DNA of 27,610 bases from an uncultured Nitrososphaerota archaeon (GCA_964636085.1 CAZWPQ010000011.1:23948-51557), one strand, 5' to 3'; counted from the first letter of the stretch, positions 201 to 27,610 are shown. Translations and numbers: made by a program. Notes: generated by a model from the sequence alone, not told the origin.

Positions 201-393
201 CTTGGATAATCACCCTAAACCATAGAGATAAAATACTATTTATATCGCATAGCATGCCGATGTAGTAATTACTCAGCCAACAATCGTCTAAAATTGCCAG
301 AGTGGTTTTTACCACTATTTTCTGGGAAATTTGCAAGCTTAAGAGCATGTCGCAACTATTTCTTGGAGATCTGCATGGATCAAGGTGAACTAT

Positions 394-3300
394 ATGCATA
401 TATCATTTAAGCGGAGATCGGCAAGATACGAAGCTCTAATATTACTCGCAATACTTACACTACATATCTTATACATAAATGGCTATCTAGTGATGGATTT
501 ATCGAATGGTAGGGTGGTTGAGAACTACCGTATAGCCAAAAATGTGGGTAATAAAGAAAATCTTTCTGTGTATCCCAAAAAGGAATCCATAGGAAATAAT
601 GGTACAAATTTAGAAGACGACACTCCATTAAATAGTACAGGAATAATATATGTGGCATATACTCAGGAGTTGATACCAGTAGACATAAAATATCTCGCAG
701 GTAACTATATATCTGGTTCATACACTTTCCTGCATAGAGGAGATGGAAAATATATTGTTTTGAGATCCGATGATGTGACTGGCAGTAATGATTTTCGTAT
801 AGATATCATAGCGACATTCAATATAACTAGTGTAGAGAATGATGAAATGGTCTTGTATCTAAAGATAAATGCGACATCTAATGTATCTAGTACAATATAC
901 ATATATAACCAATCAGCAGAAGAGTACCAAATATTGTATGAGATCAATTATACAAGCGACATTATCTTGAAGGCCAATGTGTCAGATAATAACCATGATG
1001 GAAACGTCACAGTACGGATACATCTACAGTCTGGGCAAAGCTTTACAGCTAAGATGTGGCATTTATCATTGTTTACGAATAAAGTTAGAAACTTCAAGTT
1101 GGAGTATACCTTTATAAGTCAGAAGATATTAGAGTATAGGATGAGAATTGCAGGCTTTTTAAGGTATACGAAGCTATACATGCTTAATTTGTCGGAATGG
1201 TTGGCAATCAAATATATAGATCCCCCCAGCTCAATAATTTTCAATTATACAGAGAGAAGCATATTGCTAGTGGCATGTGGTATAGTGGAGATCGTCTTTA
1301 GGGGATACGACTACTGGGAAAGGGAGGGGATTATGAATGTGAGTATGGAATTCTACTGTGGTAACCATTCGATAGACATAAATAAGATTAGGCCATACTA
1401 TAGACTGACATACCTAACATACAATATTTCAAATTATACTGGCTATGGTTTCTCCCGTGTTATTAGGGTGAAAAATCCAACGAATCTAGATCTATACTAT
1501 GTCCCCATAAAGATAGTGTTAAATGATTCATGGTTTAACATGTTGGCACTTAGGAGGGATGCAAGCAATATTGTATTTTACATCAAGGAAGATGAGACTC
1601 TTGAAAGACTTAAGTCAATACTTGCCTATTGGGATGGTGTCAATGCAATATACTATGTGAAGTTGGATTCTTTAAAGGCGGGAGAGGAGAAAGACATCGT
1701 CATATACTATGGAAACCTTAATGCTCCAACCCCCCTACAATACCCAGAGGCCATGAAGATGGGTAAGGTCGAAAATATGAGTATGTTGGCTAGAGGATCC
1801 ATGTGGGATATATCTGGTGGCTATATAGACGAAATCTACTATAATGATGAAGAAAATTCATCGGAGATGGAAGTAATCTCGGAAGGCTATACTTCAATAC
1901 GCTATGATTACGTATTAAGTGGAGTGTTTGAACTGAGCGTCTCGTTAGCCTCCCCTAAGGGTTATGTCGCCCCAAATTTTAGCTTTCGTGTGAAGTTCCT
2001 ATACGAATATAGCGATAGGTATTATTGCCTAGAATATACCAATAATACTGCAAGTGGTCATCCAGAGATAATACTGTACTGGGTTAATGGCACGCACACG
2101 GAAATTATAGATAGATGTGCCGCGTCTAACGTGGCTGAGGCATTTTATGTTCAAGTCAGTTTGAGAATAAATACTGTGATTGACTACATTGATATTTCTG
2201 CCACTGCTCCCTATAACCGCTTAGAGGTATATGGATATGAGGATGTTTTAGATATATCTCATGGGGCTTGGTACCTTGTTTTCGAGGTAGAGGGGGTTGA
2301 CTGGCTGGATCTAAAAATTTTAAAGTGGAGCCAAAGAGTGGGTTGTAGTAATTGGTTGTCATATTATTGGCCAGAGACATTAGAGGACTTTGTGTTAGAA
2401 GAAACATACGTAGAAACGGATTGGTCTTATCTAAATAAATCTACTCTAGCCGTGAAGAATAATGCTATTATGGCCCTAAAAGTGTATGATCCTATGGGAA
2501 ATATTTTGTTTGATTCAAATATCTCAGTGAATGTCACAGGAAGTAATGTTGTAAGAGTAAAACTCAATGGATCCATTCTCAGATTCGTAAATGAGGTTTC
2601 TAGGCCCCACCGTATAGATTTATGGGCCGACTTAAACTATTGTGTTGTCCATTTAGGTTCCTTCGAAAGCGACTATATAGTGATTAAGAGGGGACTCTAT
2701 ATTCTTTATGATACGGATGAGATATCTGGTATACAAAAAGGCTACGTAATTTTTGTAAGGGATTATGAAGTGATCATATCTGTCGATAACATGTGGGGTT
2801 TGCTCAAAACTTGGGAAAATACGGATTCCATATCGATAGCATACACACTTCTTGACTTTCTAAATGGAGAAACAAGATGCCCTCTCTATGGCATTCTAAT
2901 AAACTATAGTGTTGCCGCAAGCTATGTAAACGATATAATTGATTTCTTAAATGCCACGGTATTCAACCAATGGTTATCCATGAAAGCTTTGTCGGAAAGT
3001 GAGTTGGAAAATCTTACGCTAATCTTAAGTGCTCTTAACATAAGTCTTGAGGACGTGGATGTGCTAACTCTGAGTAGCGATGGAACAAGTTGTGTTGTTG
3101 AGGCAAGAGACGACAACAACCAGACACACATTTATCAATATGACAGATCATTGATGGAGATGATAGACATATTGATCTCCAAGAATATTGTCAGCATGGC
3201 CTTATCCGCCAACATAGCCAAATTCATTGCCTTATTCGCACCAATAACAATGGTTAGATTTGATGGTCAGAATTATAGTGTTCTAATTCGCATGCAATGT

Positions 3301-4473
3301 GGTTCTTCAGAAATAATGTTGAATATGGATTTTGATGACGACACAATACACATAGAGTACACATCATTAAACACGACTAATAGTTATCTTAGAGAATTAG
3401 TCTCCTTACTTTTGGTCAGTTCTGTAATTGCGAATAGGAGTTCCGTCATTTTTGGTTTTAGGGGGGCGGAAAGCAAAGGTATAGAATTTGACATGAAGTA
3501 TAAACACATAAAAGTCTCTTTTGTACGATCACAACGCAATCTTTATATGGATATGAATCTCATAGATAGGAGAGTATTGATATCTTTTTGTGACTCTTGG
3601 AATGCAGAGATTGATTTTAGTGATCTAATTGTTTTAAGCCAAGGCGATATAATAAATATCTCTAACTCTCGCCTTGATTGTTTAGTGGATCCACATTTTG
3701 GTGGAGTCAAATACAGGTTATGCTCTAACAATTCACTGAGCAACTTCATAGAGTGGATTCTGGACAACATAGCGTATAGAAGATTGCGACTATATGATTA
3801 TTATACCAATAACCCCATGGAGTTGACAGACGGTATACTGACTATCATGGTTAATGATACGGTTATACATGATTATGAATTTGTAACATTGAAGGGGCCT
3901 ATAAGGTTGGTTATACTGGATAGATGGAATATAACACTAGCTAACACTACTACCAGTGACATAAACATAGATGTAATTGTAAAACTTGGCTCTATAATTA
4001 TTATGAATTGCCTAAATGTGTGCACATTCGTTTCCTTGAAACCTGAGGAATCAAACATTCCAATGAATTATACGTTGGGGCCTAATCAAAGTATGGCTGA
4101 CCTTCTAGCAGTAGGCAAATCGTATAACCTCCTTATAGAGGATTATTATGGAAACATATTTTTTAACGATACTATTTTCCTACAGGCCAATACATCATAT
4201 AGGCCACTGATCGTAGTAATAATTAGCACCATAACGATTATTCAGGGAAGCGAAATTAATCAGAGTTCAGAATCAAATGAATCTAATGGCGTCGAGATAT
4301 CAGTATCACCGAATATTCCAAGATCACGTGGCATTGACTATCGTATCGTCATTATAATCCTCCTAGCGGTACTTATCACTGTAGCGATCAAAATTATGCT
4401 AAGGAAAATAAGGAAGAGAAAAGTTGTGGAGATAGAGAAACTAATAGAAAAAATAATTTCGGACGAAGAATAG
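394..4473 (+). CDS. Large membrane-anchored cell-surface glycoprotein with a DUF2341 domain
   Basis: N-terminal hydrophobic segment (YEALILLAILTLHILYI), C-terminal TM helix followed by a basic tail (IVIIILLAVLITVAIKIMLRKIRKRK), about 45 N-X-S/T sequons by manual count, and a DUF2341-like segment (RVIRVKNPTNLDL..VPIKIVLN...DASNIVF...YVKLDSL......IVIYYGN, ~1450-1716). Start placed at ATG 394 because GTG 385 lies inside the AAGGTGA RBS. Confidence 0.8.
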   Translation: MHISFKRRSARYEALILLAILTLHILYINGYLVMDLSNGRVVENYRIAKNVGNKENLSVYPKKESIGNNGTNLEDDTPLNSTGIIYVAYTQELIPVDIKYLAGNYISGSYTFLHRGDGKYIVLRSDDVTGSNDFRIDIIATFNITSVENDEMVLYLKINATSNVSSTIYIYNQSAEEYQILYEINYTSDIILKANVSDNNHDGNVTVRIHLQSGQSFTAKMWHLSLFTNKVRNFKLEYTFISQKILEYRMRIAGFLRYTKLYMLNLSEWLAIKYIDPPSSIIFNYTERSILLVACGIVEIVFRGYDYWEREGIMNVSMEFYCGNHSIDINKIRPYYRLTYLTYNISNYTGYGFSRVIRVKNPTNLDLYYVPIKIVLNDSWFNMLALRRDASNIVFYIKEDETLERLKSILAYWDGVNAIYYVKLDSLKAGEEKDIVIYYGNLNAPTPLQYPEAMKMGKVENMSMLARGSMWDISGGYIDEIYYNDEENSSEMEVISEGYTSIRYDYVLSGVFELSVSLASPKGYVAPNFSFRVKFLYEYSDRYYCLEYTNNTASGHPEIILYWVNGTHTEIIDRCAASNVAEAFYVQVSLRINTVIDYIDISATAPYNRLEVYGYEDVLDISHGAWYLVFEVEGVDWLDLKILKWSQRVGCSNWLSYYWPETLEDFVLEETYVETDWSYLNKSTLAVKNNAIMALKVYDPMGNILFDSNISVNVTGSNVVRVKLNGSILRFVNEVSRPHRIDLWADLNYCVVHLGSFESDYIVIKRGLYILYDTDEISGIQKGYVIFVRDYEVIISVDNMWGLLKTWENTDSISIAYTLLDFLNGETRCPLYGILINYSVAASYVNDIIDFLNATVFNQWLSMKALSESELENLTLILSALNISLEDVDVLTLSSDGTSCVVEARDDNNQTHIYQYDRSLMEMIDILISKNIVSMALSANIAKFIALFAPITMVRFDGQNYSVLIRMQCGSSEIMLNMDFDDDTIHIEYTSLNTTNSYLRELVSLLLVSSVIANRSSVIFGFRGAESKGIEFDMKYKHIKVSFVRSQRNLYMDMNLIDRRVLISFCDSWNAEIDFSDLIVLSQGDIINISNSRLDCLVDPHFGGVKYRLCSNNSLSNFIEWILDNIAYRRLRLYDYYTNNPMELTDGILTIMVNDTVIHDYEFVTLKGPIRLVILDRWNITLANTTTSDINIDVIVKLGSIIIMNCLNVCTFVSLKPEESNIPMNYTLGPNQSMADLLAVGKSYNLLIEDYYGNIFFNDTIFLQANTSYRPLIVVIISTITIIQGSEINQSSESNESNGVEISVSPNIPRSRGIDYRIVIIILLAVLITVAIKIMLRKIRKRKVVEIEKLIEKIISDEE

Positions 4474-4475
4474 AT

Positions 4476-5756
4476 CTAGAGCTTATATATTTCCAATGTT
4501 CCTTCGCCACCACATAGAATTTCTTTTTGTCCATCATTATCCACATCTATACACAATAAAACCCTCGGGATAGCCGAGGTTGTTGTAGAAGCGATTCTGG
4601 AGCCGTTGGTTTTGTAAATGGAAAAACTCCTAGAATTCCAACCTACCAGCACCTCGACTTCATCATCAGCATCTATATCTTGGAGGTTAAAGGCAGTAAT
4701 ATAGCTTCTTCCCTCGACAGAAAGAATTTCTTTTTGATTTTTCTTGATAACGAGTTTTTTAGAGCGGACCTGTATTCTTTCAACGATGCCGTCATTGTCT
4801 ATATCCATATCTAGTGTCCTTTCCAACGCAGGGATGATTTGCACAGATCTCTTCTTGATTATGAGTGAATTCCCAATCCAGTCTCCGATGACTACTAGAT
4901 TACCATCCGTGGTGGATGCCGTCGCTATGAATGCTATCTTATCCTGTAGCTCATAGGACTGCAAGACAGTTCCTTCAGAACCAACAATAATAAGTTTGCC
5001 GTCAGAAAATCCTATTATTATTTCCTCTCGCCCATCTTCATTGATGTCTTGCGTGTCTATAATCACAGGCTCACCGGTCTTCGGTAGGCCTATAGTGTTT
5101 AAGACATTTAAAGGTTTTTTTCGTTTGAATATTCCTTTCGAATCCCTCGGTATGTCTAGGAAATATAATACTCCGTCTCTCACGATAACAAAAAGGCGAT
5201 AGCATCCATTATGTTGTATACTTCCAATAAATGCGGGCGAACCAAAAATGCCTTCTAATGGATACGTTGTGACTTTCCCCTTATGGTTTATTATGTAAAG
5301 ATTTCCTATCCGAGAAATCGCAATGATCTCCTTGAATCCATCATTGTCTATGTCGAATAAGCAGAAATCTTGGACATATGGATCCTTAAATATAGACCAA
5401 AGCTCTTTTTCTCTAAAATTATAGCAAGCCATAATACCATCTGCCCTTAGTATTATGAATTCGGGGGAACCATCATTGTTTATGTCTTCGAGTTCAAATT
5501 TGATGATGATCTCACCAGATATGCTAGGGCGTTCAATCAAAGTTTCGCTGGTTGAAACCGAACGAAGCAGTGTTCTATTGTACTCCTCAACACTTCTCTC
5601 CACTTTTGGCTTCACGACGATTTTTTTAATCAATTTTCCCGTTAGCGGATTCGAGACGAGTATTGTTGACAAACGCACATTGACAAGCTCTGTAGCGTTG
5701 TCATTATTCACATCGGCCATTTTTGCCCTATTGGAAATTATATTTACTAGCTTCAT
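4476..5756 (-). CDS. FG-GAP/VCBS-like repeat beta-propeller protein without a signal peptide
   Basis: Seven clear D-x-[ND]-x-D-x-x-x-E blade motifs (DVNNDNATE, DINNDGSPE, DIDNDGFKE, DINEDGREE, DIDNDGIVE, DIDADDEVE, DVDNDGQKE) plus degenerate ones. Likely start ATG 5756 (MKLVNII) with GGAGA upstream; the ORF track extends to 5822. Confidence 0.8.
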   Translation of the reverse strand: MKLVNIISNRAKMADVNNDNATELVNVRLSTILVSNPLTGKLIKKIVVKPKVERSVEEYNRTLLRSVSTSETLIERPSISGEIIIKFELEDINNDGSPEFIILRADGIMACYNFREKELWSIFKDPYVQDFCLFDIDNDGFKEIIAISRIGNLYIINHKGKVTTYPLEGIFGSPAFIGSIQHNGCYRLFVIVRDGVLYFLDIPRDSKGIFKRKKPLNVLNTIGLPKTGEPVIIDTQDINEDGREEIIIGFSDGKLIIVGSEGTVLQSYELQDKIAFIATASTTDGNLVVIGDWIGNSLIIKKRSVQIIPALERTLDMDIDNDGIVERIQVRSKKLVIKKNQKEILSVEGRSYITAFNLQDIDADDEVEVLVGWNSRSFSIYKTNGSRIASTTTSAIPRVLLCIDVDNDGQKEILCGGEGTLEIYKL

Positions 5757-5830
5757 CGCAATCTCCAGACGACTAATAAAGAAATAGAGAATTAAAGGAA
5801 AAATATAATGCGATATGGTCAAATCAGAGA

Positions 5831-8490: not shown

Positions 8491-9591
8491 GTGATAAAGA
8501 TTCCTGAAACACTATTCATAGGTAAATGGATTCCGCGGGGTGCCCCACGGCTTCTAGGTGCGTATCCCATAAAGGAATTAAGGTATGACCTAATAATAGA
8601 CATATTTGGGTTGATCCTAAGAGAAGAATATAGACAAGAGGAAGAGCCTCGTGAAGGGTTCTACATAGTTCAGTATCCTCCGAAGAATGCTGCTTTCTCA
8701 GACACATATGGGGGAAGATACTTTGTGTGTTACTTCTCTGGAATGGAGTTGAGGCAATTGGTTGGTCTTATACTGGATGCTGGCGAGCGTCCAGACCCTT
8801 TTAGGGGTGCTTTAGTCAGAGCCGCTCTCCGTTTATTTAGGCGGGGAGAAATACCGACGACTGAAGAGGAATGGAGTAATCTGTGGAATCAAATTATTGC
8901 ATACCCTGAATCGCCATTGGAGCAAAAAATAGCCGATATTTTTAGAGATGTTGAAGCTAGGATAATACTATCGATAATGCTTCAGGATGGTATTCTAACA
9001 CTAGATGAACTTGTAAGAAAGGTAAGAGAACGTTTGGCGACGCCTGTGAGCAGGGATCTGATTGTTACCTATATATATGTACTATCTGCTCTAGGAATCC
9101 TAGAGGTTAGGTATGATGAAAAAGCATTAATGGAGCGAGTTTATTTGATCTCGGACGTTATATTTTATAGGAGGAGACCAAATGCCTATAATAAAATTGC
9201 TAGTAAAGTTCCAGAATATAAGGATGCATATGCACAATTTGCGTCAGAATATATAGCATCATGGGAGGCAGATATGAGTCTCATACCAGAAGTAATAGGG
9301 AACCCTGAGCTCTATGCATTTGTGGAGAGATTAAGAAAGGAGGGTGTTATGCAGGTGACAGATCTGTCTTCTGAAGAATTGAAGATTGTTGAAAAGTTAG
9401 CGGACATAAAGATAGTCAAAAGAATAGGCGATTACGTGTGCTTCTTGTCTGATCCTACATACAAAATAATATTTCCGAGATGGACAATAAAGGAAGTACT
9501 TAACCGAGCCAAGGAAAATGAGGAATTTAGGGAGATAGTAATTAAATGGCTAAATATACTAAGGGAGGCATATTTAAGAAAGAAGGGATGA
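8491..9591 (+). CDS. Conserved Asgard-type protein: N-terminal longin/uDENN-like domain plus two winged-helix-like domains
   Basis: N-terminal LFIGKW....APRLLGAYP resembles the longin/uDENN beta1-beta2 pattern. Two wHTH-like segments follow (ARIILSIMLQDGILTLDELVRKV...YIYVLSALGILEV and LYAFVERLRKEGVMQVTDL...IVEKLADIKIVK). Overall similarity to a Lokiarchaeal family is recalled from memory and not verified. Confidence 0.6.
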   Translation: MIKIPETLFIGKWIPRGAPRLLGAYPIKELRYDLIIDIFGLILREEYRQEEEPREGFYIVQYPPKNAAFSDTYGGRYFVCYFSGMELRQLVGLILDAGERPDPFRGALVRAALRLFRRGEIPTTEEEWSNLWNQIIAYPESPLEQKIADIFRDVEARIILSIMLQDGILTLDELVRKVRERLATPVSRDLIVTYIYVLSALGILEVRYDEKALMERVYLISDVIFYRRRPNAYNKIASKVPEYKDAYAQFASEYIASWEADMSLIPEVIGNPELYAFVERLRKEGVMQVTDLSSEELKIVEKLADIKIVKRIGDYVCFLSDPTYKIIFPRWTIKEVLNRAKENEEFREIVIKWLNILREAYLRKKG

Positions 9592-9637
9592 CTGATATAA
9601 AACTATTTGTGGTTCCAAACGAGGTGTGTGTTTTTTT

Positions 9638-10705
9638 ATGGTAGAATCGATCTATGACATGATAGTATCCAGTTCTAATAGGAGGATGCTAAGACAGGTT
9701 TTAGAATTTCCACAACTTCTAGCGCGGGGAATAGAAGATGGACTTGAAGTTGCGGAGGATGGGGGGATAATACATTGTGAGGGGAGCAGCGTTAGGGTAT
9801 ATTGGTACGGTATGGGAGCCTCTGCTCTTATTGGTGATTATATTAGGGCGTACTGCCTCTATTCCAAGAGCAAGGAAAGTTTAGAGGTATTCGTGGAGCG
9901 TAGCCATGAGCTAAAATATGATCCAAATGAGAATGCATTATATGTTTTCTACAGCTATTCGGGAAATACCTTTGAAACCTTATGTACGTTTAGGAAAGCA
10001 TTAACCTCAATCCCAGCGGAAAAAATAATTACTTTTTCATCGGGCGGAAAGATTGGTGAGATCGCCAAGGATAAGGGTATTATAAACATAAGCATACCTA
10101 GTGGATATGTCTCTAGGTCACATTTTCCATACGGTCTAGGCGCCGCCGTAGCTGTTTTATCAAAATATCTGGGTAATTTAGACATATTAAGCGAAATTAA
10201 AGAGGCTGTTGATATAATTGCAGAGGATATTTCCAGCGATATGATTGAATATGCGAAAGTGCTGAATCTAACAGCAAGAAAAATGGCGAGCAAGATAGCT
10301 GTTTTAATGGCTGATTACACTCTCGAACCGGTAGCGAGGAGGTTTATAGCGCAACTAAATGAGAATTCCAAGCACTTTGCAACATTCTTCGAAATACCTG
10401 AGGGATGCCACAACTTCATTGTTGGCATAAGACACATGCATAAGAAGTGTTTTATGGTTGTGCTGAGGAGAGAATCGGAAGACGAGTTTATAAGGAATAC
10501 GATAAATACACTGACGAGGCATATCTTGAAGTGTGATTGCCTTGAATACAAGATAGAGGACGGAGAAACTTATTCTTGGTCGACGCTACTGAAACCAACA
10601 TTTTTCATAGATTTACTTTCTATTTTTCTGGCTGATATCAAGGGGGAGAATGCTTTTGATATCACCGAAATTGTGTCATTTAAACAATCTATTGGTGGTG
10701 GCTGA
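9638..10705 (+). CDS. Bifunctional phosphoglucose/phosphomannose isomerase (SIS domain, archaeal PGI/PMI family)
   Basis: GMGASALIGD, SYSGNTFET, SSGGKI, RRFIAQLNENSK and PEGCHN match PGI/PMI catalytic motifs. ATG 9638 follows GAGGTG. The stop overlaps the next start (TGATG). Confidence 0.85.
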   Translation: MVESIYDMIVSSSNRRMLRQVLEFPQLLARGIEDGLEVAEDGGIIHCEGSSVRVYWYGMGASALIGDYIRAYCLYSKSKESLEVFVERSHELKYDPNENALYVFYSYSGNTFETLCTFRKALTSIPAEKIITFSSGGKIGEIAKDKGIINISIPSGYVSRSHFPYGLGAAVAVLSKYLGNLDILSEIKEAVDIIAEDISSDMIEYAKVLNLTARKMASKIAVLMADYTLEPVARRFIAQLNENSKHFATFFEIPEGCHNFIVGIRHMHKKCFMVVLRRESEDEFIRNTINTLTRHILKCDCLEYKIEDGETYSWSTLLKPTFFIDLLSIFLADIKGENAFDITEIVSFKQSIGGG

Positions 10706-11739
10706 TGATAGCACTAATCCTAGCGGGAGGATTCGCGACAAGACTCTGGCCTCTAACAAAGGATTACCCAAAACCCCTACTGAGACTAGGTAAGCGTAGG
10801 ATCATAGACTTTGCGCTTGAACATTTATACGAGAACGAATTTATTTCCCGCATATTCATATCCACAAATACTGCATTCAGGCATGTATTTGAAGCATGGC
10901 TAAAAGAATCACCCTACTGTACCAAAGCAGAACTTATCTTTGAGCCATCTCTTTGTGAAGAAGAGAAACTTGGGGCTATAAGGGGTATAAAGTATGACAT
11001 TGAGGCTATAGCGGATAGACATGGATTAGATGACATGATAATCGTGGCTGGTGATAATGCGTTCTTTATGAACTTCTCCGAATTTATAAAGCAATTCAAC
11101 ATTAAGAGATCTCCGATGGTTGCGGTAAGAAAGATAGAATCGATTGAAGAAGCTAAAAGATTTGCGGTCGTTAGTATAGACAAAGAAAGCAAGATAATAG
11201 AGTTCGAGGAAAAACCAAGGCAACCAAAGTCAACACTAATAGCTACTGCCATCTATGCACTTCCAAAGGACTGTATAGGCTATGTATCAAAATACTTGGA
11301 GGAAGGTGGAAATCCGGATGCGCCTGGCTATTTTTTTGAATGGCTTATAAACAAAACCGATGTATACGCATTCATGTTTGAGGGCTTCTGGTTTGACATA
11401 GGCGCACCTAGTGGTTTCTTTGAAGCGTTGAGGGAGACACTAAAAGAATCATACATACATAGAAGTGCCGTTGTGGATGGCAAGATAGTGGATCCAGTAT
11501 TCGTTGGAGACAATGTTTTTGTCTCAAAGGACTCCGAGGTAGGTCCTTGGGTAGTTTTAGAGAACGGAGTTCGTGTTGAGGAAGCGAAAATTTCCAGTTC
11601 CCTTATAATGGAGAGATCTTACATTCGTGGGTCAGAAATAAGGAATGCGTTGATAGGAGCTCATTCAAGGATCGAGGGTTCAATCATAAAGAGTGGCATT
11701 TTGTCGAGTTATAGCAAGCTACTAGGGCATCTAAGCTAG
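10705..11739 (+). CDS. NDP-sugar pyrophosphorylase (sugar-1-phosphate nucleotidyltransferase) with a C-terminal left-handed beta-helix
   Basis: ILAGGFATRLWPLT...PKPLL, VAGDN, FEEKP, WFDIG, and C-terminal hexapeptide repeats. Confidence 0.92.
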   Translation: MIALILAGGFATRLWPLTKDYPKPLLRLGKRRIIDFALEHLYENEFISRIFISTNTAFRHVFEAWLKESPYCTKAELIFEPSLCEEEKLGAIRGIKYDIEAIADRHGLDDMIIVAGDNAFFMNFSEFIKQFNIKRSPMVAVRKIESIEEAKRFAVVSIDKESKIIEFEEKPRQPKSTLIATAIYALPKDCIGYVSKYLEEGGNPDAPGYFFEWLINKTDVYAFMFEGFWFDIGAPSGFFEALRETLKESYIHRSAVVDGKIVDPVFVGDNVFVSKDSEVGPWVVLENGVRVEEAKISSSLIMERSYIRGSEIRNALIGAHSRIEGSIIKSGILSSYSKLLGHLS

Positions 11740-14385: not shown

Positions 14386-16410
14386 TTATGCTAGATCTAT
14401 TTCTGTATAAGGGTTCCATCTTATCTCTCTAAAAACATCTGTTCCAAAGTTTTTCTTTACATAGTCCCCTATGTATCTTACTAGGTCTAGGCTTCCTCTT
14501 TTTCTGGCCATATATTCCTCTACGGTTCCCTCTGATATTATTTCGTATACTCTGGCTAGTTTGCCCCTATGGGGTCTTAAGACACGTCCAACTCTTTGTA
14601 TGAATTCCCTTTTTTGTTTGGAGCCACCAGTGATTATAGCGATGCTGGCTTCGCCGATGTCGACTCCTTCTTCGGCCTTTTTTATGATGACCAGGACGGA
14701 TATGATGCCCATTTTGAATCTCTTTATGATATTTTCTTCCTCTCTTTTAGATTCTTCGGCTGTCAGTGCTGCTGTAGGCACAATTTTGTTGATCTCAGAT
14801 GCAATTCTTTTTGCATATTTTATGCTTGTGGTAAAGATGAATATTCTCTCTGAGGAAAATTTTTTGACTATTTCCTTTATTACATCTATCTTGTTGGGGT
14901 TCTCTTGGGCTAGTGCTATCAGCTTATTTAGGAGTTGTCGTTTCTTTATAGGGTCGTGCTCTTTATCAACTAAGTGCCGTAGTTGGTAGTATTCGGCAAT
15001 GATTTCTGGTGGGAGCGGGACATATATTCTTCTGAAGATCATGGGTGCTAAGAGGCCCTTTTTGACGAGTTCGTGGTAAGTAATGGAGTATACGATTTTT
15101 CCAGCTAGCTTGAATATTAGTTCCTCATTTCTATCTCTTCTACTTGGCGTTGCTGAGAGAGCCAGCCTATAGGGGGAACACAAATTCATAGCGATTTTCC
15201 TAAAGGTTCTAGCTGGTATATGATGGCATTCGTCAAATATAGCTAGCCAGAATCTCCTCTGAATCTTATCCATGTGTCTTACGCCAGATTGATATGTCGC
15301 TATTGTTATATCCCTAATATCAATATCGCCTTTTCCTAGGACTCCAATAGCAGACTTGGGTATCCCCGTGAATTGGGAGATTTTTTCTCTCCACTGATCT
15401 AGGAGCCAGAGGTTTGGCACGAACACTATTGTTGGTTTCTTTATCCTAACCATAGCGGCGATTCCTACAAGCGTTTTTCCGCCACCAGTAGGTATAACGA
15501 CGGTTCCTCTGAACTTATTATCGATCCAATTCATGAGCGATGCGAGTTGGTGAGGATATAACTCATATTTTTCTTTGAGACCTCTGATCTCTCTATCGGG
15601 AAGACCTATGTTTATCTCTAATTCTAATCCAAACTTGTTCGCTATTTCTTCTAGATAAATAACTGTGAATGGGGCCATGTAAACATCAATGGTGCTGGTC
15701 TTTCTATAAACCCTGCATGTATCAATGATTTTCTCCTCTAACAAGCCTTCAGGGGTCTCATAATAGTATTTTATTTTGCCCGTCTCGACCAATTCAGATA
15801 TTAGTTCTTCATACACATCCGCGGGGAGTCTTATATGAATTCTATTTCGCTCTGTTAATTTAGCTACGAGTTTTCTAAGTCTTGCTTTTTTGCTTAGCTT
15901 TAAAAGTGTGCCCATGATGGGTTTTGGCAATAACTTTATTTTATCCGTAGAGGCTAAGCTTGCAATGTCCGTCAAATTAGCCACAAGGAATGGAATTTCA
16001 ATTGTTCCTACTTCTGGTATATCGAAGTTTCTAATTTCGATTCGGAGGGGTAGTATATCCCTACTGACTTTTTTTATGAGCTCATATGGGTCCTCTCCAA
16101 TTACACAAATGTAGGCCTTATTGGCATCAGGGTCTACTATATGGTGGGGGATGTTGGCAATGAGTTTATCTATAATGTCTAGAATCCTATAAGCGTAGGC
16201 CTGATCAACATACATAAGTTTTTGATTGATAAATCGTAGAAAGTCATTAACCTTGGCTATAATTCTCCAATTTGCTCTCCATTCTTTGTGTTCTGCATTC
16301 CATCTGGCCACCTTTTTAATTTCTTTGGCTATTTCCTTTATTGTTTCCCATGAAAGTTCCCTTGATTCGATAACTATATTGCCGATTACTAGTCTTTGTT
16401 TTACCCCCAT
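14386..16410 (-). CDS. xpb: XPB/Rad25-like superfamily 2 DNA helicase with an extended N-terminus
   Basis: LYPHQ, IPTGGGKT (motif I), FDECHH (II), LSATP.RRD (III), EGVDI (V), QRVGRVLR (VI), YEIISEGTVEE. Confidence 0.88.
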   Translation of the reverse strand: MGVKQRLVIGNIVIESRELSWETIKEIAKEIKKVARWNAEHKEWRANWRIIAKVNDFLRFINQKLMYVDQAYAYRILDIIDKLIANIPHHIVDPDANKAYICVIGEDPYELIKKVSRDILPLRIEIRNFDIPEVGTIEIPFLVANLTDIASLASTDKIKLLPKPIMGTLLKLSKKARLRKLVAKLTERNRIHIRLPADVYEELISELVETGKIKYYYETPEGLLEEKIIDTCRVYRKTSTIDVYMAPFTVIYLEEIANKFGLELEINIGLPDREIRGLKEKYELYPHQLASLMNWIDNKFRGTVVIPTGGGKTLVGIAAMVRIKKPTIVFVPNLWLLDQWREKISQFTGIPKSAIGVLGKGDIDIRDITIATYQSGVRHMDKIQRRFWLAIFDECHHIPARTFRKIAMNLCSPYRLALSATPSRRDRNEELIFKLAGKIVYSITYHELVKKGLLAPMIFRRIYVPLPPEIIAEYYQLRHLVDKEHDPIKKRQLLNKLIALAQENPNKIDVIKEIVKKFSSERIFIFTTSIKYAKRIASEINKIVPTAALTAEESKREEENIIKRFKMGIISVLVIIKKAEEGVDIGEASIAIITGGSKQKREFIQRVGRVLRPHRGKLARVYEIISEGTVEEYMARKRGSLDLVRYIGDYVKKNFGTDVFREIRWNPYTEIDLA

Positions 16411-16439
16411 GTTGAATCCGCTAAGTCATTACATGGAAT

Positions 16440-18074
16440 TTACATGGTGACTTCATACTTAAATCTTGAATACTTTGCTATGAATGCCTGCTTAATTGTT
16501 TTCTCAAAATCCTTCGTAATAATAGAACTTATTAGGCGCCTAATTTTGTCGTCTGGCATACCTATTCTTTCTAGAACATGTCTAGGAATCAAAACCCTAA
16601 ACACGGCAAAGTCCGTTATTCTAGCCGATGTTATTACCCATGCATTAGCCTCGCTAACGGACACAATTTTATGTCTCTCAACATCGATAAGAGGAAACAT
16701 CGAGTAGGGCAAGTATGGATTTAGTGGGAAGAACTTTATTGGTGGAGAATCTATAAATATGTCGTTTGTATCTATCTCAAGGATCTCCCCTATTGTCTCC
16801 TTGAGATTTCTTATGACAACATCGAAATTATCCACATCGCCTATATGTTCTATATCTGATTGAAGTATTGTGATCTCTTGCGAATATATCTCCCTGAGGT
16901 AGGGCTTCCTATAGAGTATACGCTTTGCCAACTCCCTGAGTTTGCCATCGTTGCTCTCTAGTGCTTTAAACAGTATATAGTTGTCATCCATTTTTTCCAA
17001 TAGATCCAAGATTTCCTCTTCTCCCCTCACAATACCTTCATAGATTCCCTCAAAATCTATGATTTGCTTATCATAGATGCTCACTAGAAGCTCCTTTATA
17101 ACATAATCCATGAGTCGTGAAAATTTGTGGAAGTAAACATTGTTAAAAAGCCAGAGCCGGGAATATAGGAATGCCCTCAAGGCCCCAATAGCCTTCCTAA
17201 GCAAGCCTATATAAAGTTTCTTTTCTCCCTTGGTGTCAATCTTATTCTTCTCCACGATCATCGAGAATACAAACAGTCGATCCACATCGATTCTTCCATA
17301 TTCTACCGCACCTGTGAAGTAGGAATCTCTTAAACAAAAATCAATAATATCTGCTGGGTAGACAAATTCCTTGACTACATGTCTCATAACTTCATATGCT
17401 ATCCTTTTTGGCCTACCTAATAGCCTCCTAGGCTTCATTATATGATCTAAGCATTCAATCACAATATCGGCGTCCACAAGATTGTCGTCGTAATGCCTCT
17501 CCATGAATCTTATCATGTTATCCCTAAGGAAGTTTTTATATATGAAGTAGCTTGTGTCTTCATGAGACTGAATTCCCAGACTTCTTATCTTTTTGCTCCT
17601 AGAAATAATGGCCTCGTCAAATGCATGGGAGTAAGGCATATGCCCGACATCGTGAAGTAATCCCCCCAGCCTAACAGCTATTAAAATCGAAACTATATCT
17701 CTTTCTTCCTCTAACCCAATTTCGTCGAATAGGGGGACAGAATAGGAGGTGTCGCCAGCGGAAGCACATGGAGCTTTTTGTCCCGCAAAGGCGTGGGATG
17801 TTCTCAGCAAAGCCAATGCAAACTTGCCGGCTAGATGCATAACCCCTACCGAATGAAGAAATCTGCTGTGTGTAGCGCCAGGATAAACAGTATATGCTAC
17901 TTGAAGCTGGTGAATTCTACGGAGTCTCTGAAAGATTTTAGAATCTATGACTTGTTCTTCTAACCTGGTGAAGGGTATGTATATGTGTATTGGGTCTCTT
18001 ATATATTTATGCACATGAGTAGACATAATCCCGGTATCCAGCAATTCTATTATTTGAATCCTCGCGTTCATCAT
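16440..18074 (-). CDS. HD-domain phosphohydrolase (SAMHD1/dGTPase-like, YdhJ type)
   Basis: IRDPIH, FQRLRRIHQL...VYPGATHSRF.HS.GV.HLA, LLHDVGH.PYSHAF, HED, AD..D...RDSYFTG, VYFHK. Start uncertain (18092, 18074 or 18071); AGGGGG precedes 18074. Confidence 0.9.
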   Translation of the reverse strand: MMNARIQIIELLDTGIMSTHVHKYIRDPIHIYIPFTRLEEQVIDSKIFQRLRRIHQLQVAYTVYPGATHSRFLHSVGVMHLAGKFALALLRTSHAFAGQKAPCASAGDTSYSVPLFDEIGLEEERDIVSILIAVRLGGLLHDVGHMPYSHAFDEAIISRSKKIRSLGIQSHEDTSYFIYKNFLRDNMIRFMERHYDDNLVDADIVIECLDHIMKPRRLLGRPKRIAYEVMRHVVKEFVYPADIIDFCLRDSYFTGAVEYGRIDVDRLFVFSMIVEKNKIDTKGEKKLYIGLLRKAIGALRAFLYSRLWLFNNVYFHKFSRLMDYVIKELLVSIYDKQIIDFEGIYEGIVRGEEEILDLLEKMDDNYILFKALESNDGKLRELAKRILYRKPYLREIYSQEITILQSDIEHIGDVDNFDVVIRNLKETIGEILEIDTNDIFIDSPPIKFFPLNPYLPYSMFPLIDVERHKIVSVSEANAWVITSARITDFAVFRVLIPRHVLERIGMPDDKIRRLISSIITKDFEKTIKQAFIAKYSRFKYEVTM

Positions 18075-18081
18075 AATCCCC

Positions 18082-18960
18082 CTACTCAACATGGAATTCT
18101 TCTAGGACTTCCGGTTGTAGTTTTGAATAGACAATATTTTCCAAGTATTCCCTGGATAAAAGAGCACCCTCTTTATCCGATACCTCAAAAATTAGTGGAA
18201 CTTTTAAGTTGAGTCTTAATAATATTTCAACGAATTTTTCCCAATTAATAGTTCCCTCTCCGCATGCTAGCATATCTTTTGAAAATGCTGGGTTCGTATC
18301 CCTTACATGGAAGGATATGATCTTTTCCTTAAATCTATCTATTATTTCTGACATCTCCATTATTGGAAAACCTACAGCCTGCACTGTGTCTATAGTTACA
18401 TAGATGTACTCGTCGTTATCAAAATCGTTTAGAATTTTTTCTAGTAACTTGGGGTGGCCAAGATCAAAGCAACCACTTCTAAGTTCCATGCTGAGTTTTA
18501 CGTTTAAATCTTTGGCGACCTTCAAAAGATCTGAAATGGAGCCCTTTAGTTTTCTGTACGCTTTGCCCCATAATGTTTTGGCTGGAAAGAATTTAAAGCC
18601 GAGGTGAAAAGTGACCCATTTAGCATTTATGATGCTAGCGAAGTGTATAGAGTTAATCAATTCATCCACTGCAAATTTTCTCATTCGTTCACTAAGACTA
18701 GCAAGGTCAATAGAATAGAACGGTGCGTGGATGGATAGACTAATTTTGTGTTTATGACTAAGCTCCCTAACACGCTCAACATGACTATCTGGAATCAATA
18801 CCGAGTGGTAGTGGCCGTCATTAATTATCTCGAGATGCCTGAAATCATTTCTTATAGCAAAGACTATCCCATCAACTATAGTTTCTTTGCGTCTGACATT
18901 GAGTATTGATGTGGACACACCATACTTAAATGTAAAGGGATGCGACAAAATAAACACCAT
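18082..18960 (-). CDS. Xylose-isomerase-like / AP endonuclease 2 family TIM-barrel protein
   Basis: SIHAPF..IDLAS.....R, VTFHLG, LSMEL, TIDTVQ, FHVRD, GEGTINW, LIFEV. Most metal ligands are kept; two His positions are replaced. Confidence 0.85.
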   Translation of the reverse strand: MVFILSHPFTFKYGVSTSILNVRRKETIVDGIVFAIRNDFRHLEIINDGHYHSVLIPDSHVERVRELSHKHKISLSIHAPFYSIDLASLSERMRKFAVDELINSIHFASIINAKWVTFHLGFKFFPAKTLWGKAYRKLKGSISDLLKVAKDLNVKLSMELRSGCFDLGHPKLLEKILNDFDNDEYIYVTIDTVQAVGFPIMEMSEIIDRFKEKIISFHVRDTNPAFSKDMLACGEGTINWEKFVEILLRLNLKVPLIFEVSDKEGALLSREYLENIVYSKLQPEVLEEFHVE

Positions 18961-19029
18961 TATGCTATATACTTATCTATTATTTATCTACTTAAGACAA
19001 AACTCACTACTATCATTGTCACTATTATG

Positions 19030-19080
19030 TTTGAACGTTTTCAAATTCTTTTATAAGATACTTACAGTGATACTTACAGT
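19030..19080. promoter_or_regulatory. Divergent promoter: inverted repeat, TATA box and 12-bp tandem direct repeat
   Basis: TTTGAA-cgtt-TTCAAA (19030-19045), TTTTATAA (19049-19056), then GATACTTACAGT twice (19057-19068 and 19069-19080). Confidence 0.55.
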
Positions 19081-19160
19081 TATAATGGATTACAAAATCC
19101 CCCGAGTAGTGGTATTGGTGTTCGCTGAGCAGAAAGAAAAAATTGTTAGGTATGTCTAAT

Positions 19161-20003
19161 ATGAGTCAACAGAGGGGCTATATTCAACTGGATTTGTTTG
19201 GAAAGGCACCAGAAGTTATCATCGATACGCATGAAGTTGGAACAAATAGGACAACATCGGTGACACTATTTCTGGAGAAAGTCAAGGCTAGAAAAATTAG
19301 CTTTAAGATACAAAAACTAGATATTGGAGATGTTATATTGCCCAATGGCTATGCTATAGAGAGAAAATCTGTCAGGGATTTTCTAAATTCTCTCATGGGG
19401 TCTAAGGATGGAAGAGCAAGGCTCTTCGAACAAATCCGTACACTATCTGAAGCTTATGAACGTCCAATTCTACTTATTGAGGGCGGCCTCTCGATAAGAC
19501 TAGATCCATGGGATAAGGCCATATACATACCTATTCGAAAGAAGAAACTAAGAAGACGTATATACGCAGTAATAGAGGAGAGAATTGGCGTCCACCCTAA
19601 TGCCTTTCTCGGTACGATCAAAAAAATCGAAGAACTAGGTATAGAAGTAATTAAGAGTTATGGTCCCCGACATGGAGCGCATATTCTTTGGAGTCTGTAC
19701 CTAAGGGCACGTGGCAAGGATAATCTTGGTGAAGAAATAGGTCCTAATGAATATCCTATAATCAGGGTGAAGCCTAGGCTTAGAAGTCTTAGGGAGCAAC
19801 AAATATTCTTTCTGTGTGGGCTACCGGGTATTAGCTATGCGAGGGCGATAAAAATATTAAAAACATATGGGTCTCCCTATAATGCAATTCTAAAGGTACG
19901 TAGATGGGACATCGATGTGGATGGTATTGGTGCTGCCACACTGGATAAGGTTCATAGGGTTCTTTTTCGTGAGTTTCCAATAGATCGAGATGAGGAAAAA
20001 TGA
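19161..20003 (+). CDS. xpf: ERCC4/XPF-family structure-specific endonuclease, short form (nuclease + HhH2, no helicase)
   Basis: IIDTHE, LDIGDVIL, AIERKSVRDFLNSL (ERKx3D), RLFEQ..LSEAYERPILLIEG, and HhH motifs LPGIS and VDGIG. Start is 19161 or 19152; the ORF track uses TTG 19143. Confidence 0.9.
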   Translation: MSQQRGYIQLDLFGKAPEVIIDTHEVGTNRTTSVTLFLEKVKARKISFKIQKLDIGDVILPNGYAIERKSVRDFLNSLMGSKDGRARLFEQIRTLSEAYERPILLIEGGLSIRLDPWDKAIYIPIRKKKLRRRIYAVIEERIGVHPNAFLGTIKKIEELGIEVIKSYGPRHGAHILWSLYLRARGKDNLGEEIGPNEYPIIRVKPRLRSLREQQIFFLCGLPGISYARAIKILKTYGSPYNAILKVRRWDIDVDGIGAATLDKVHRVLFREFPIDRDEEK

Positions 20004-22888: not shown

Positions 22889-24112
22889 CTAGTTAATCTT
22901 TTTCCTCCAATTAATCAATTTCTTTATAGCAAGAATAATAAGCTCTATTTCCTCGGAATCAAGGCCCGGATACATTGGAAGCCAAATGGAGTTTTTGGCG
23001 AGTTTTTCTGCTAAGGGGAGTGTTATCTTGGAATAATTGGGATAGCGCAAAATTTTGGCAAAATGATTTATCTGAGGGTCATTAATATTGGAAAATAGTT
23101 TTGTCTTATGGAGTGGTATGTGATAGCCTTTTCTAGCCATGATTCCTTCTGCATTTAGTGCATTCACAAATGCATCTCTATCCCAACCAATAGCATTGGG
23201 ATCTACACTTATGTTGAATATGTAGTATGCATGTTTTTTATAGGGCTTTTCCTCGGGGGGTGTGATGCCAGGGATATTTTCTAACATTTCACGCATAATT
23301 TTTGCGGCCCTTCTACGTTGCTCTATAAACTTATCTAGTTTTTTTAACTGGCAACAGGCAATGGCGGCCTCGATTTCTGAGATTCTCATATTGTATCCCA
23401 GTCTGATGTACTCATATGCTCTTTTTGCCCCTTCTAGTACCTTTAACTCTCCATGAGCTTGGAGAAGCCTAATTTTCTCCGCAATTTCGTCACTATTTGT
23501 GGTAATAATACCTCCCCATCCCCCCGCGGCTATTACTTTTGATGGGTATAGACTAAATACAGCAATATCGCCTAGTTTCCCCACTTTATAGCCACGATAT
23601 TCAGCACCATGTGCATGTGATGCATCCTCAATTATTGGTACTCCTTGTTCTTCCGCATATTGTCTTATCTCATTGAACTCTACTGGATTGCCATACAAAT
23701 GAACGATTGTGATCCCATCGCACCTATCCAATCTTGACAATTCATCTGGGTTAATGTTCCCATCAGGTAAGACGTCAACGAATATAGGGATTGCTCCCGT
23801 ATGTACTATGGCAGAAGCTGTCGAGATGAATGTGAGTGGTGTTGTTGCGATTTCTTTGCCAAATGTAAGGTCTAGGGCTAAATTGGCCAAAAAGAGACCA
23901 TCTGTGCCGTTACTAACGGCTATTGCATGTTTGACTCCGATATATCTAGCAAACTCTTTCTCAAGAATCCTAGTATATTTTCCTCCAACAAATCGCCTAG
24001 ATGTTATGACCTCCCTAACAGCCTCAGACTCCTCCTCGCCTATTATTATCTTTGTGAAGGGGATGGGTCTCTTTGTAATTGGTGGTCCACCAAGTATTGC
24101 TGGTTTTTCCAT
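22889..24112 (-). CDS. DegT/DnrJ/EryC1/StrS family PLP-dependent sugar aminotransferase
   Basis: KPAILGG, AVSNGT, TFISTA, VHLYG, IIEDASHAHGA, FSLYPSK (PLP Lys), GYNMRISEIEAA, LPMYP. Confidence 0.93.
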   Translation of the reverse strand: MEKPAILGGPPITKRPIPFTKIIIGEEESEAVREVITSRRFVGGKYTRILEKEFARYIGVKHAIAVSNGTDGLFLANLALDLTFGKEIATTPLTFISTASAIVHTGAIPIFVDVLPDGNINPDELSRLDRCDGITIVHLYGNPVEFNEIRQYAEEQGVPIIEDASHAHGAEYRGYKVGKLGDIAVFSLYPSKVIAAGGWGGIITTNSDEIAEKIRLLQAHGELKVLEGAKRAYEYIRLGYNMRISEIEAAIACCQLKKLDKFIEQRRRAAKIMREMLENIPGITPPEEKPYKKHAYYIFNISVDPNAIGWDRDAFVNALNAEGIMARKGYHIPLHKTKLFSNINDPQINHFAKILRYPNYSKITLPLAEKLAKNSIWLPMYPGLDSEEIELIILAIKKLINWRKKIN

Positions 24113-27400: not shown

Positions 27401-27610
27401 CTGATCCTGACGGGGACACGATTCTCAATTATGATGAGTTCGTATATAATACAAATCCTCTAGATGCTGACACGGATGGAGATGGTACGCCCGATGAATG
27501 GGAAATTCGCTATGGACTTAATCCAAGGGATCCTGAGGATGCGAACTATGATATCGATGGAGATGGGTTGACAAACTGTGATGAATTTGAAAGGGGCACG
27601 AACCCATGGG
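24496..27610 (+). CDS. Secreted/surface protein: signal peptide, 8 FG-GAP/PQQ-like propeller blades and ~24 or more TSP3-like Ca2+-binding repeats; truncated by the window end
   Basis: Hand translation is open from ATG 24496 to the end: MGRIYVKNTLILVLLIFAAQLISS (signal). Blades: DINNDG, DINGDS, DIDGDG, 3x PALGDVDGDGSLEIVVG, DLDGDN, DLNGDN. These are followed by repeats of DTDGDG[LM]xDxxE...GT[DN]P and DxDxDGLTNLEE. Absent from the ORF track because the stop lies outside the window. Confidence 0.9.
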   Translation, partial: MGRIYVKNTLILVLLIFAAQLISSYSIVSSDTVSTERTSSILFKDATKNTLTGWRAYTQIGPNVMHIGFSSKYTRTETLWNYTAEGMRIETPLVVDINNDGAYDVILCAYGRLGSEILALNGKNGIAMWRKSFAPPFPILSPLVASDINGDSIVEIACTTASGELYIYNTSGTQILAEKVGVGPLTYPVMGDIDGDGIIEIIIGDYANTTRVYKASGATIASYWNYTIGGPVVASPALGDVDGDGSLEIVVGGVDGVVYVLGNDGSLEWDYTIGGPVVASPALGDVDGDGSLEIVVGGVDGVVYVLGNDGSLEWNHNISTPMNYTPALGDVDGDGSLEIVVGGSDGGIYVINGVDGGLIWDLSVGPNITTGIAIGDLDGDNKLDIVVGAGDGRIYAVDGKRARLLWSYQTEDAISASPIFGDLNGDNTVDVVVGNGVGEVYALSGTTGSVRIYWQGLRGEDTGAKNLDLIDPDHDMASNYTESIFGTDPANNDTDDDTMIDGWEINFNLNPMDPSDVDLDLDEDGLTNLQEYNLGTDPQAVDSDGGGAGDGWEVQYGFDPLNASDEELDNDLDGLTNIEEYIYGTNPWEADTDSDGMSDGWEVCYGFDPISPHNAHQDIDGDGLTNLEEYQHGSNPYRTDTDGDGLDDYEEVQYGTDPANYDTDGDGMSDLFEIIIGTNATSIDTDGDGANDTLEYLVNNTNPLDPDTDNDGMYDGWEIQYNLSPLNSSDASFDLDGDGLTNLEEFNHGTNPLLYDTDGDGLADNAELFEGTDPINPDTDGDGLSDGWEVQYSLNPLDSSDATADFDDDGLENYMEFEIGSDPTSADTDGDQLTDYDEYVYYNTSPIKSDTDGDGLPDNIEIDYGTDPCSADTDGDGLPDGWEVQYGLDPLSPTDANMDPDNDGMQSLTEYLYGTDPLSNDTDGDGVGDLAELVYGTDPLSNDTDGDGMLDGWELYYGLDPVNASDAFADPDGDTILNYDEFVYNTNPLDADTDGDGTPDEWEIRYGLNPRDPEDANYDIDGDGLTNCDEFERGTNPW
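25165..25523 (+). repeat. In-frame 135-bp tandem repeat: two near-identical copies plus an in-phase partial third
   Basis: 25165-25299 and 25300-25434 differ at 2 positions (AAT/GAT and TCA/TCG). A 50-bp exact segment recurs in phase at 25474-25523. Confidence 0.95.
27230..27338 (+). repeat. 43-bp exact direct repeat at 66-bp period within the TSP3-like repeats
   Basis: TTTATGGTACGGATCCGTTGTCGAATGATACTGACGGCGATGG at 27230-27272 and 27296-27338. Confidence 0.95.

Follow-up and report, generated by a model that had tools for sequence, protein, structure and literature searches.

A longin and tandem winged-helix protein family of Asgard archaea and its genomic association with giant surface proteins and an Arf-like GTPase

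The genomes of Asgard archaea hold dozens of longin, roadblock and small-GTPase genes whose pairings are unclear. Among the closest described systems, NPRL2 and NPRL3 consist of an N-terminal longin domain and a C-terminal tandem of winged helices, according to the passage of Levine 2013 drawn on here (PMC3747258). For Asgard archaea themselves, the portions of Tran et al. 2024 (PMC10933270) used here describe longin-GTPase and roadblock-GTPase fusion proteins, and state that the GTPase genes of MK-D1 generally do not lie in operons with longin or roadblock genes and that genome layout is no help in pairing the two. The corresponding portions of the preprint by Liu et al. (10.1101/2020.10.19.343400) report NPRL2-like longin proteins in Asgard archaea, as well as a conserved Asgard operon of a LAMTOR1-like roadblock protein, a Rab-like GTPase and a DENN-domain protein. 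In C9orf72, the residues W33-D34 and G38-P39 are given as essential, or as diagnostic of longins of the GTPase-activating-protein (GAP) type, in the part of PMC12290439 cited here, which covers 15 Asgard longins and notes such motifs in some of them. The subject of this report is P0001, the 366-amino-acid (aa) protein encoded at 8491-9591 (+) of a 27,610-nucleotide (nt) stretch of DNA (GCA_964636085.1 CAZWPQ010000011.1:23948-51557; hereafter the window) from an uncultured archaeon filed under Nitrososphaerota. The host is an Asgard (Njord-type) archaeon, and P0001, a soluble protein, combines a longin domain of eukaryotic style with two winged-helix units (WH1 and WH2). On balance we favour, with modest confidence, the view that P0001 belongs, as a free-standing protein, to a so far nameless cytoplasmic family of Asgard archaea at large, which sits at the inner face of the membrane and partners giant surface proteins and one orthogroup of Arf-like GTPases.

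P0001 resembles NPRL2 and NPRL3 in layout and length (about 366 versus about 380 aa), its longin domain has its best structural match in a chain of a KICSTOR-GATOR1 entry (9o5d_D, Z 11.2), and both are tied genetically to small GTPases. However, the P0001 family gives no match to their sequence profile and has no family-wide conserved arginine finger, and no DEPDC5-like partner turned up, although no search was aimed at one; the family also differs from NPRL2 in being linked or fused to surface glycoproteins and in having an Arf-like, not a Rag-type, GTPase as its putative client. Similar to the fusions of Tran et al., the GTPases encoded beside the family join an N-terminal domain of ~120 aa to an Arf/Rag-like G domain, whereas here one GTPase orthogroup is found beside the P0001 family in 11 of 21 sampled GTDB families. 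The operon of Liu et al., so far as the cited portion describes it, likewise joins a longin-type protein with a small GTPase, the Loki paralogs are expanded, and DENND1B is the best Foldseek match of the P0001 longin domain; the C-terminal half of P0001 differs in being WH-WH with no Pfam DENN domain, a distinction drawn by description only, and the operon may overlap with the GTPase-linked part of the P0001 family. The family in part shares with the GP-motif longins of C9orf72, SMCR8 and FLCN a W-D...G-(P) pattern in the first β-strand, loop and second β-strand at the C9orf72 spacing, but again its C-terminal half is not DENN, the proline at +6 occurs in 17 of 45 sequences and P0001 itself lacks the aspartate at +1; the family may be among the Asgard longins of PMC12290439, with which it was compared by description. 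Tandem winged helices serving protein contacts are also known from ESCRT-II (Vps22/25/36), the cullin WHB domain and MAGE/Nse3, but these proteins have no longin domain and the matches to them are weak (TM 0.17-0.29). The apparent additions of this analysis are the soluble form encoded by a gene of its own, a juxtamembrane motif common to the tails of the partners, and one GTPase orthogroup. The family thereby offers concrete pairs and triples (a surface-protein tail with the motif, a longin-2xWH module and one GTPase orthogroup), for which most Asgard lineages, cultured Lokiarchaeia-like genomes included, supply evidence in the form of split genes, fusions or operons. If the link is true, eukaryote-type longin/GTPase machinery acts on plasma-membrane surface proteins in a cell without endomembranes.

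Fold and distribution of the P0001 family

The P0001 open reading frame (ORF) is a real gene and not a chance one. Eight other proteins are homologous to it over their full length (55-80% identity), a library of 1.84 billion proteins yielded 45 representative clusters at E ≤ 1e-3, and within the phylum 311 of 400 genomes gave matches. The alignment of 45 sequences built from these clusters is the basis of the family profile and of all residue counts given here; P0001 matches the profile over its full length with an E-value of 1.2e-115. By profile search the family is present in 74 of 90 high-quality genomes and in 68 of 85 genera of the phylum, many genomes having at least five matches each. 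It is nearly missing in the families f10 (1/31), f12 (0/12) and f13 (1/22) and complete in the Loki-like family f24 (135/135 genomes). All 21 genomes taken one per GTDB family hold it, with up to 16 matches each, many being longin-only proteins. The loci related to that of P0001 are from genomes labelled Njordarchaeota, plus one 'Crenarchaeota' metagenome-assembled genome that groups among them. In the genome of the window, which is 83% complete, P0001 is one of two full-length members; the other is a 344-aa paralog on contig C15 (27% identity). In public records the proteins of the family are labelled no more than 'hypothetical' or 'uncharacterized', and neither Pfam nor NCBIfam assigned a family to P0001, whose sole weak matches in these libraries, DUF2551 and EcoEI_R_C, fall under their cut-offs. 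The only PDB sequence-profile result for P0001, a PvuII repeat match (E 0.0035), was judged spurious.

The AlphaFold model of the whole P0001 is middling, with a mean predicted local distance difference test (pLDDT) score of 73.7 and a predicted template-modelling (pTM) score of 0.51. Residues 1-141 folded alone with the 45-row alignment reached a pLDDT of 92.9 and a pTM of 0.86. The modelled domain has the order β1 (7-13), β2 (19-25), α1 (32-47), β3 (56-61), β4 (77-82), β5 (89-94), α2 (102-118) and α3 (125-140), which is the β-β-α-β-β-β-α-α arrangement on a five-stranded antiparallel sheet that characterizes the longin/roadblock superfamily. Foldseek returned no match for the domain at E ≤ 1e-3, the best rows being DENND1B (E 1.7e-3), followed by AP5, SEAC and GATOR1 entries and a Lokiarchaeal longin. 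Alignment by VIA-align against 48,161 chains yielded the VAMP7 longin with a Z of 10.5 (root-mean-square deviation, rmsd, 3.0 over 110 aligned residues), Gse1 with 10.4, a 362-aa GATOR1 chain with 10.4 (rmsd 3.4, 121 aligned), and AP5 and the Loki longin with 10.3 each. When the 1000 best chains of Foldseek were re-aligned, 9o5d_D, a 368-aa chain of the KICSTOR-GATOR1 entry, came first (rmsd 2.9, 122 aligned); it is called NPRL2-sized by its chain length alone, as the search output gives no chain names, and its row lies within 1 Z of the VAMP7, Gse1, AP5 sigma and TRAPP longins, so that these are effectively tied. The best structural rows (Z 9-11.2) are all from entries known by title for longin or roadblock chains. 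The longin fold of residues 1-141 is thus a firm prediction of the model, as the first-pass annotation had supposed from the sequence.

The most conserved N-terminal feature of the family is the motif W....AP..LG.YP, with W13 in 41/45 and P26 in 44/45 sequences. Counted from this tryptophan, D(+1) is found in 27, R/K(+3) in 37, G(+5) in 34 and P(+6) in 17 of the 45, followed by Y-P. P0001 itself reads W-I-P-R-G-A-P here, and its motif (W13..R16-G17-A18-P19....Y25-P26) spans β1, the loop and β2, with R76 immediately ahead of β4.

WH1 superposes on the cullin WHB domain with a Z of 11.2 (rmsd 1.6, 67 aligned) and on Fur/PerR/MarR with Z of 10-10.9, and WH2 is modelled at a pLDDT of 83-92. Comparison of the family profiles of residues 142-235 and 262-340 by hhalign gave a 97.1% probability of homology (E 6.7e-11, 71 columns), against 0.4% for the longin domain and WH2 as control. 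The alignment covers both [YF]L[IS].D motifs and the conserved proline that comes after each of them, and bears out the earlier suggestion, made from these motifs, that the two units arose by internal duplication. Fold searches with the whole model listed winged-helix matches only, with no NPRL2 row among the best 50; the best Foldseek rows were 2zme_B (E 3.9e-3) and 3cuq_A (E 8.5e-3).

Variants of the family were also observed. Long forms of 574-603 aa with a C-terminal extension occur at four loci (L068, L069, L072 and L078), that of L072 with TPR matches. Small standalone longins of 126-148 aa that match the family longin profile lie a few kb from family genes at five loci (L049, L054, L057, L064 and L048), and one standalone longin near family genes has a Fuz_longin_1 match; it is possible that such proteins are dimer partners. 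Several family and GTPase matches in other genomes (e.g. G117, G120, G121 and G310) have in-frame TAG, TAA or TGA codons.

Association with giant surface proteins and one Arf-like GTPase orthogroup

Most members of the family, P0001 included, are soluble proteins in their own right, whose genes stand next to one for a surface protein or, as with P0001, apart from it. Among 40 loci from 21 families, a same-strand giant rich in NxS/T adjoins 18 of the 41 family genes. Ten of these giants are upstream and end in a transmembrane helix and a tail, eight are downstream and start with an anchor, and smaller single-pass proteins are found near six further family genes of the 41. In family f24, a large ORF that ends in a transmembrane helix plus a tail of 75-206 aa abuts the family gene from upstream, with a gap of -11 to 0 nt, in 32 of 36 distinct cases (33 of 38 rows, in which two genes are counted twice); because the genomes of f24 are kin, this count overstates independence. 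Two loci, L036 (G191:C2) and L037 (G202:C93), show three tandem cassettes of a giant and a family gene, ~6 kb apart, and at L036 the space between the second and third cassettes holds an Arf-like GTPase gene in the opposite orientation.

The 15 tabulated upstream partners, taken from diverse loci, from the locus of the own-genome paralog (L002) and from one Loki-like locus (L036), all have a basic, amphipathic juxtamembrane motif, [RK]-[IYF]-P-x-x-[IV]-[KR]-[KRQ]-[IM]-x3-[IMLK]-K-x-I-x-[KR]-[GK], which is a by-eye summary from which some tails miss some positions. The ectodomains of the partners are unrelated: BLAST with P0057, the 1362-aa protein encoded at 385-4473 (+) of the window, returned only its two orthologs among 19 other giants. 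In one genome (G170), the products of two genes in tandem (2663 and 2648 aa) each have an anchor, an ectodomain, a transmembrane helix, the same tail and a complete family module in one chain, the modules covering positions 1-360 of the family hidden Markov model (HMM) with E-values of 1e-131 and 2e-129. This fusion argues for a functional link between the family module and the surface giants, a context absent from the first-pass annotation. Homologs of 715-2040 aa were searched for and none was found at 1e-10, which is weak evidence, as the fused forms (~2650 aa) are outside that range.

In the genome of the window, the paralog on C15 abuts a giant of 1617 aa with a 1-nt overlap. At least four giants of this genome (1211+ to 2607 aa) end in a transmembrane helix and a tail of the form L-P-[WK]-E-V-K-E..L-K..-K-G (Table 1), and of the four only the one on C15 abuts a family gene. 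At L002 (2538-4010, minus strand), the giant of the paralog has a weak match to the second domain of Ribophorin II (E 6.4e-4), below the cut-off.

P0057 is the probable cognate surface protein of P0001. In two related loci (L004 and L005) its orthologs lie 1.5 kb upstream of the P0001 orthologs, with one opposite-strand propeller gene between them. The P0057 orthologs are 23-24% identical to P0057, compared with 58-59% for the P0001 orthologs; despite this low identity of the whole protein, the distal half of the tail motif is kept in P0057 and in both orthologs.

A Pfam scan of 30 selected neighbours of family genes revealed 12 Arf-like GTPases (E 2e-12 to 7e-24), each with an N-terminal domain of ~120 aa; one of the 12 has a weak Clat_adaptor_s match. 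The 12 form one orthogroup, since all have their best match in the genome of the window in a single ORF on contig C34 (L089 1099-1977, G000:C34), over the full length and with E-values of 1e-22 to 2e-41, compared with 2.5e-10 or weaker for the other GTPases. This ORF is the single ortholog of that genome, and the orthogroup is present in 20 of 22 genomes. A 242-aa ORF (L089 2001-2729) begins 23 nt past it; Pfam gives no match for its product, which to the eye starts in a roadblock-like manner.

Fifteen of 44 full-length family genes from 21 genomes lie within 1.5 kb of a C34-type ortholog, and of the 15 best GTPase matches 12 are within 1 kb of a family gene. With a partial-match gene in G285 included, such pairs occur in 11 of the 21 GTDB families sampled. 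In this genome, which is of the same order as that of the window, an operon reads family gene, 9 nt, GTPase, a gene of 171 aa and a membrane glycoprotein of 582 aa. With few GTPase orthologs per roughly 2000-4000 genes, we estimate that chance adjacency is well under 1% per gene. On the family tree, both the giant linkage and the GTPase linkage are scattered. The gene neighbourhood strongly backs the link to small GTPases that the first-pass annotation had drawn; the putative clients are Arf-like, and the NPRL2 part of that annotation holds only in part.

Proposed role and alternative explanations

P0001 is probably a cytoplasmic adaptor or platform through which the cell surface is coupled with a GTPase switch, where binding is inferred from fold, fusion and neighbourhood. 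We propose that the module docks on the conserved basic amphipathic helix after the transmembrane segment of the surface protein, and that it would be covalently tethered where the two are fused. The acidic winged-helix units and the pI of 5.8 of P0001 count in favour of the proposal. By analogy with NPRL2/3, FLCN/FNIP, C9orf72/SMCR8, DENN, TRAPP and AP complexes, in which longin domains play such parts, that of P0001 might offer the Arf-like GTPase a platform, a regulator or an effector site. The surface protein would then be coupled to the GTPase switch, for sorting, positioning, or outside-in or inside-out signalling. In eukaryotic coat adaptors, the longins of AP sigma and mu work with Arf. 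A wider reading is a three-part archaeal system, in which a transmembrane 'cargo/receptor' with a tail signal, a longin adaptor and an Arf-like GTPase would follow, by analogy, the logic of a coat adaptor or of a lysosomal longin-GAP at the plasma membrane; if true, this system would be older than eukaryotic endomembranes, and at present we hold it to be doubtful.

Several observations weigh against the adaptor proposal. The three partner genes are dispersed in the genome of the window: P0001 is abutted by neither partner, since P0057, upstream on the same strand, is 4 kb and three opposite-strand genes away and the GTPase ortholog is on contig C34. The tail of P0057 has no I-P part of the motif, and the tail HMM search of the genome missed this protein. 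At least four tail-motif giants stand against two family genes in the genome, so the pairing is not one-to-one. Elsewhere, the adjacency counts come from related genomes and are not independent, and in the diverse set roughly one family gene in two is next to neither of the partners. In addition, the N-terminal domain of the GTPase and the longin domain of P0001 show no detectable homology by hhalign (4%). Finally, sugar-nucleotide genes follow P0001 on the same strand in the three related loci (window, L004 and L005), an arrangement that would also fit a transcriptional regulator.

One alternative is that P0001 is a true GAP subunit of the NPRL2/GATOR1 (or FLCN/SMCR8) type, whose longin heterodimer gives an arginine finger to a Rag- or Arf-like GTPase. 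The longin and tandem winged-helix layout on which the first-pass annotation had based its NPRL2-like architecture stands, and the GATOR1 chain at the head of the structural rows, the GTPase genes adjoining family genes and the paralog in the same genome would all suit a GAP. The spacing of W33-D34 and G38-P39 in C9orf72 also recurs in the motif of the family, W(0)-D(+1)-x-[RK]-x-G(+5)-[P](+6). However, the structural match is tied with non-GAP longins, Pfam NPR2 (PF06218) has no match in the genome at E ≤ 10 and none in the 45 family members at E ≤ 0.01, and P0001 has isoleucine in place of D(+1), beside the low count of P(+6). Pfam DENN gave no hit in the 45 members, nor in five genomes at E ≤ 1, and the C-terminal half of P0001 is WH-linker-WH and not a DENN module. 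As for the finger itself, the arginine of NPRL2 is reportedly Arg78, as Shen et al. are said to have found in 2019. The annotation had suggested looking for a conserved arginine at this position, and the candidate, R76, occurs in 8/9 close relatives but, across the family, in no more than 9/45 sequences. Moreover, a profile search found no standalone longin of this subfamily in the genome of the window. Because of the tie between longin subfamilies, the missing NPR2 and DENN matches and the poor conservation of R76, P0001 is not filed as an NPRL2 family member, although it may work like a longin GTPase platform, and we regard a genuine GAP subunit as improbable.

The SRX longin of SR-alpha in the signal recognition particle (SRP) receptor binds the Arf-like SR-beta, and P0001 might in a similar way be a biogenesis or targeting factor for giant secreted proteins, acting in their membrane insertion or glycosylation and not as a permanent adaptor. 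Translational coupling to the giants, SRX chains among the structural matches (Z 8.5), weak SRPRB matches in two neighbour GTPases (E 7e-6 and 5e-5) and the sugar-nucleotide genes beside family genes in the window and at L076 are consistent with this explanation, but the Arf scores of the neighbour GTPases are far above their SRPRB scores, and the permanently fused forms argue for a stable cytoplasmic domain rather than a transient factor; we consider it unlikely. The possibility that P0001 is a conventional DNA-binding regulator, in which a longin-like sensor and two winged helix-turn-helix units control the downstream sugar-nucleotide genes, draws on the fit of WH1 to Fur/MarR/MecI repressors, which is as good as that to cullin WHB, on weak HTH_5/MarR/TrmB matches in a few members (at most 2/45 per family at E ≤ 0.01), and on the SIS/PGI-like and NTP-transferase genes that come next on the same strand in the window, L004 and L005. 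The winged-helix fold is indeed present, but the basic, conserved recognition helix or wing of such regulators was not found: WH1 and WH2 are net negative (-3 and -1 in P0001, the same as the family medians), the recognition-helix-plus-wing segments carry net charges of -2 and -1, no basic residue is conserved in either recognition helix among the 45 sequences, and the family median pI is 5.3, against 5.8 for P0001. In addition, the module is fused behind the transmembrane helix of surface giants in G170, and the recurrent neighbours are GTPases and membrane proteins with no fixed regulon. We consider a DNA-binding regulator very unlikely.

The P0001 locus and its neighbours

The coordinates of P0001, its parts and its partners are given in Table 1.

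Table 1. Features of the window and tail-motif giants of its genome
Feature	Position	Strand	Description
P0001 gene	8491..9591	+	366 aa, intact ORF, GTG start; longin, WH1, helical linker, WH2, C-terminal helices
P0001 longin domain	8491..8913	+	residues 1-141; AlphaFold model and structure searches
P0001 winged helix 1 (WH1)	8914..9165	+	residues ~142-225; VYLISD motif at end
P0001 helical linker	9166..9303	+	residues ~226-271; from model
P0001 winged helix 2 (WH2)	9304..9465	+	residues ~272-325; CFLSD motif at end; duplicate of WH1
P0001 C-terminal helices	9466..9588	+	residues ~326-366; net charge +4
P0057	385..4473	+	1362 aa; N-terminal anchor, NxS/T-rich ectodomain, C-terminal transmembrane helix, short tail
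P0057 transmembrane helix and cytoplasmic tail	4345..4470	+	residues ~1321-1362; tail of 19-24 aa, basic amphipathic
FG-GAP/VCBS beta-propeller	4476..5822	-	no signal peptide; likely start at internal M-K-L-V-N
Tail-motif giants, genome of the window (G000)	C15:2615-7465; C39:682-7635; C39:8734-16554; C13:53276-56908		tail HMM

In the window, L004 and L005 alike, the FG-GAP propeller gene separates the gene of the giant from that of P0001 or its ortholog. Cytoplasmic FG-GAP propellers are unusual. The Pfam matches of the propeller are to those of Itfg2, BBS2 and BBS7. A KICSTOR-related reading of it was rejected, as these matches are generic for FG-GAP; the Itfg2 match is taken as generic because an extracellular FG-GAP protein encoded at 24496-27609 also gives one.

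Around P0001 (5831-8404, minus; 9626-11739, plus; 22889-24112, minus) there are genes for ATP sulfurylase, a type I phosphodiesterase/pyrophosphatase, an SIS/PGI-like isomerase, a sugar-phosphate nucleotidyltransferase and a DegT aminotransferase. These surroundings look like a glycan-building neighbourhood beside surface glycoprotein genes. At L076 a nucleotidyltransferase gene abuts the family gene. Farther along the window, a DNA-repair cluster at 14386-20003 encodes an XPB-like helicase, an HD-domain protein, a Hef/XPF-type ERCC4 nuclease and a TIM barrel of the xylose-isomerase type that weakly resembles endonuclease IV.

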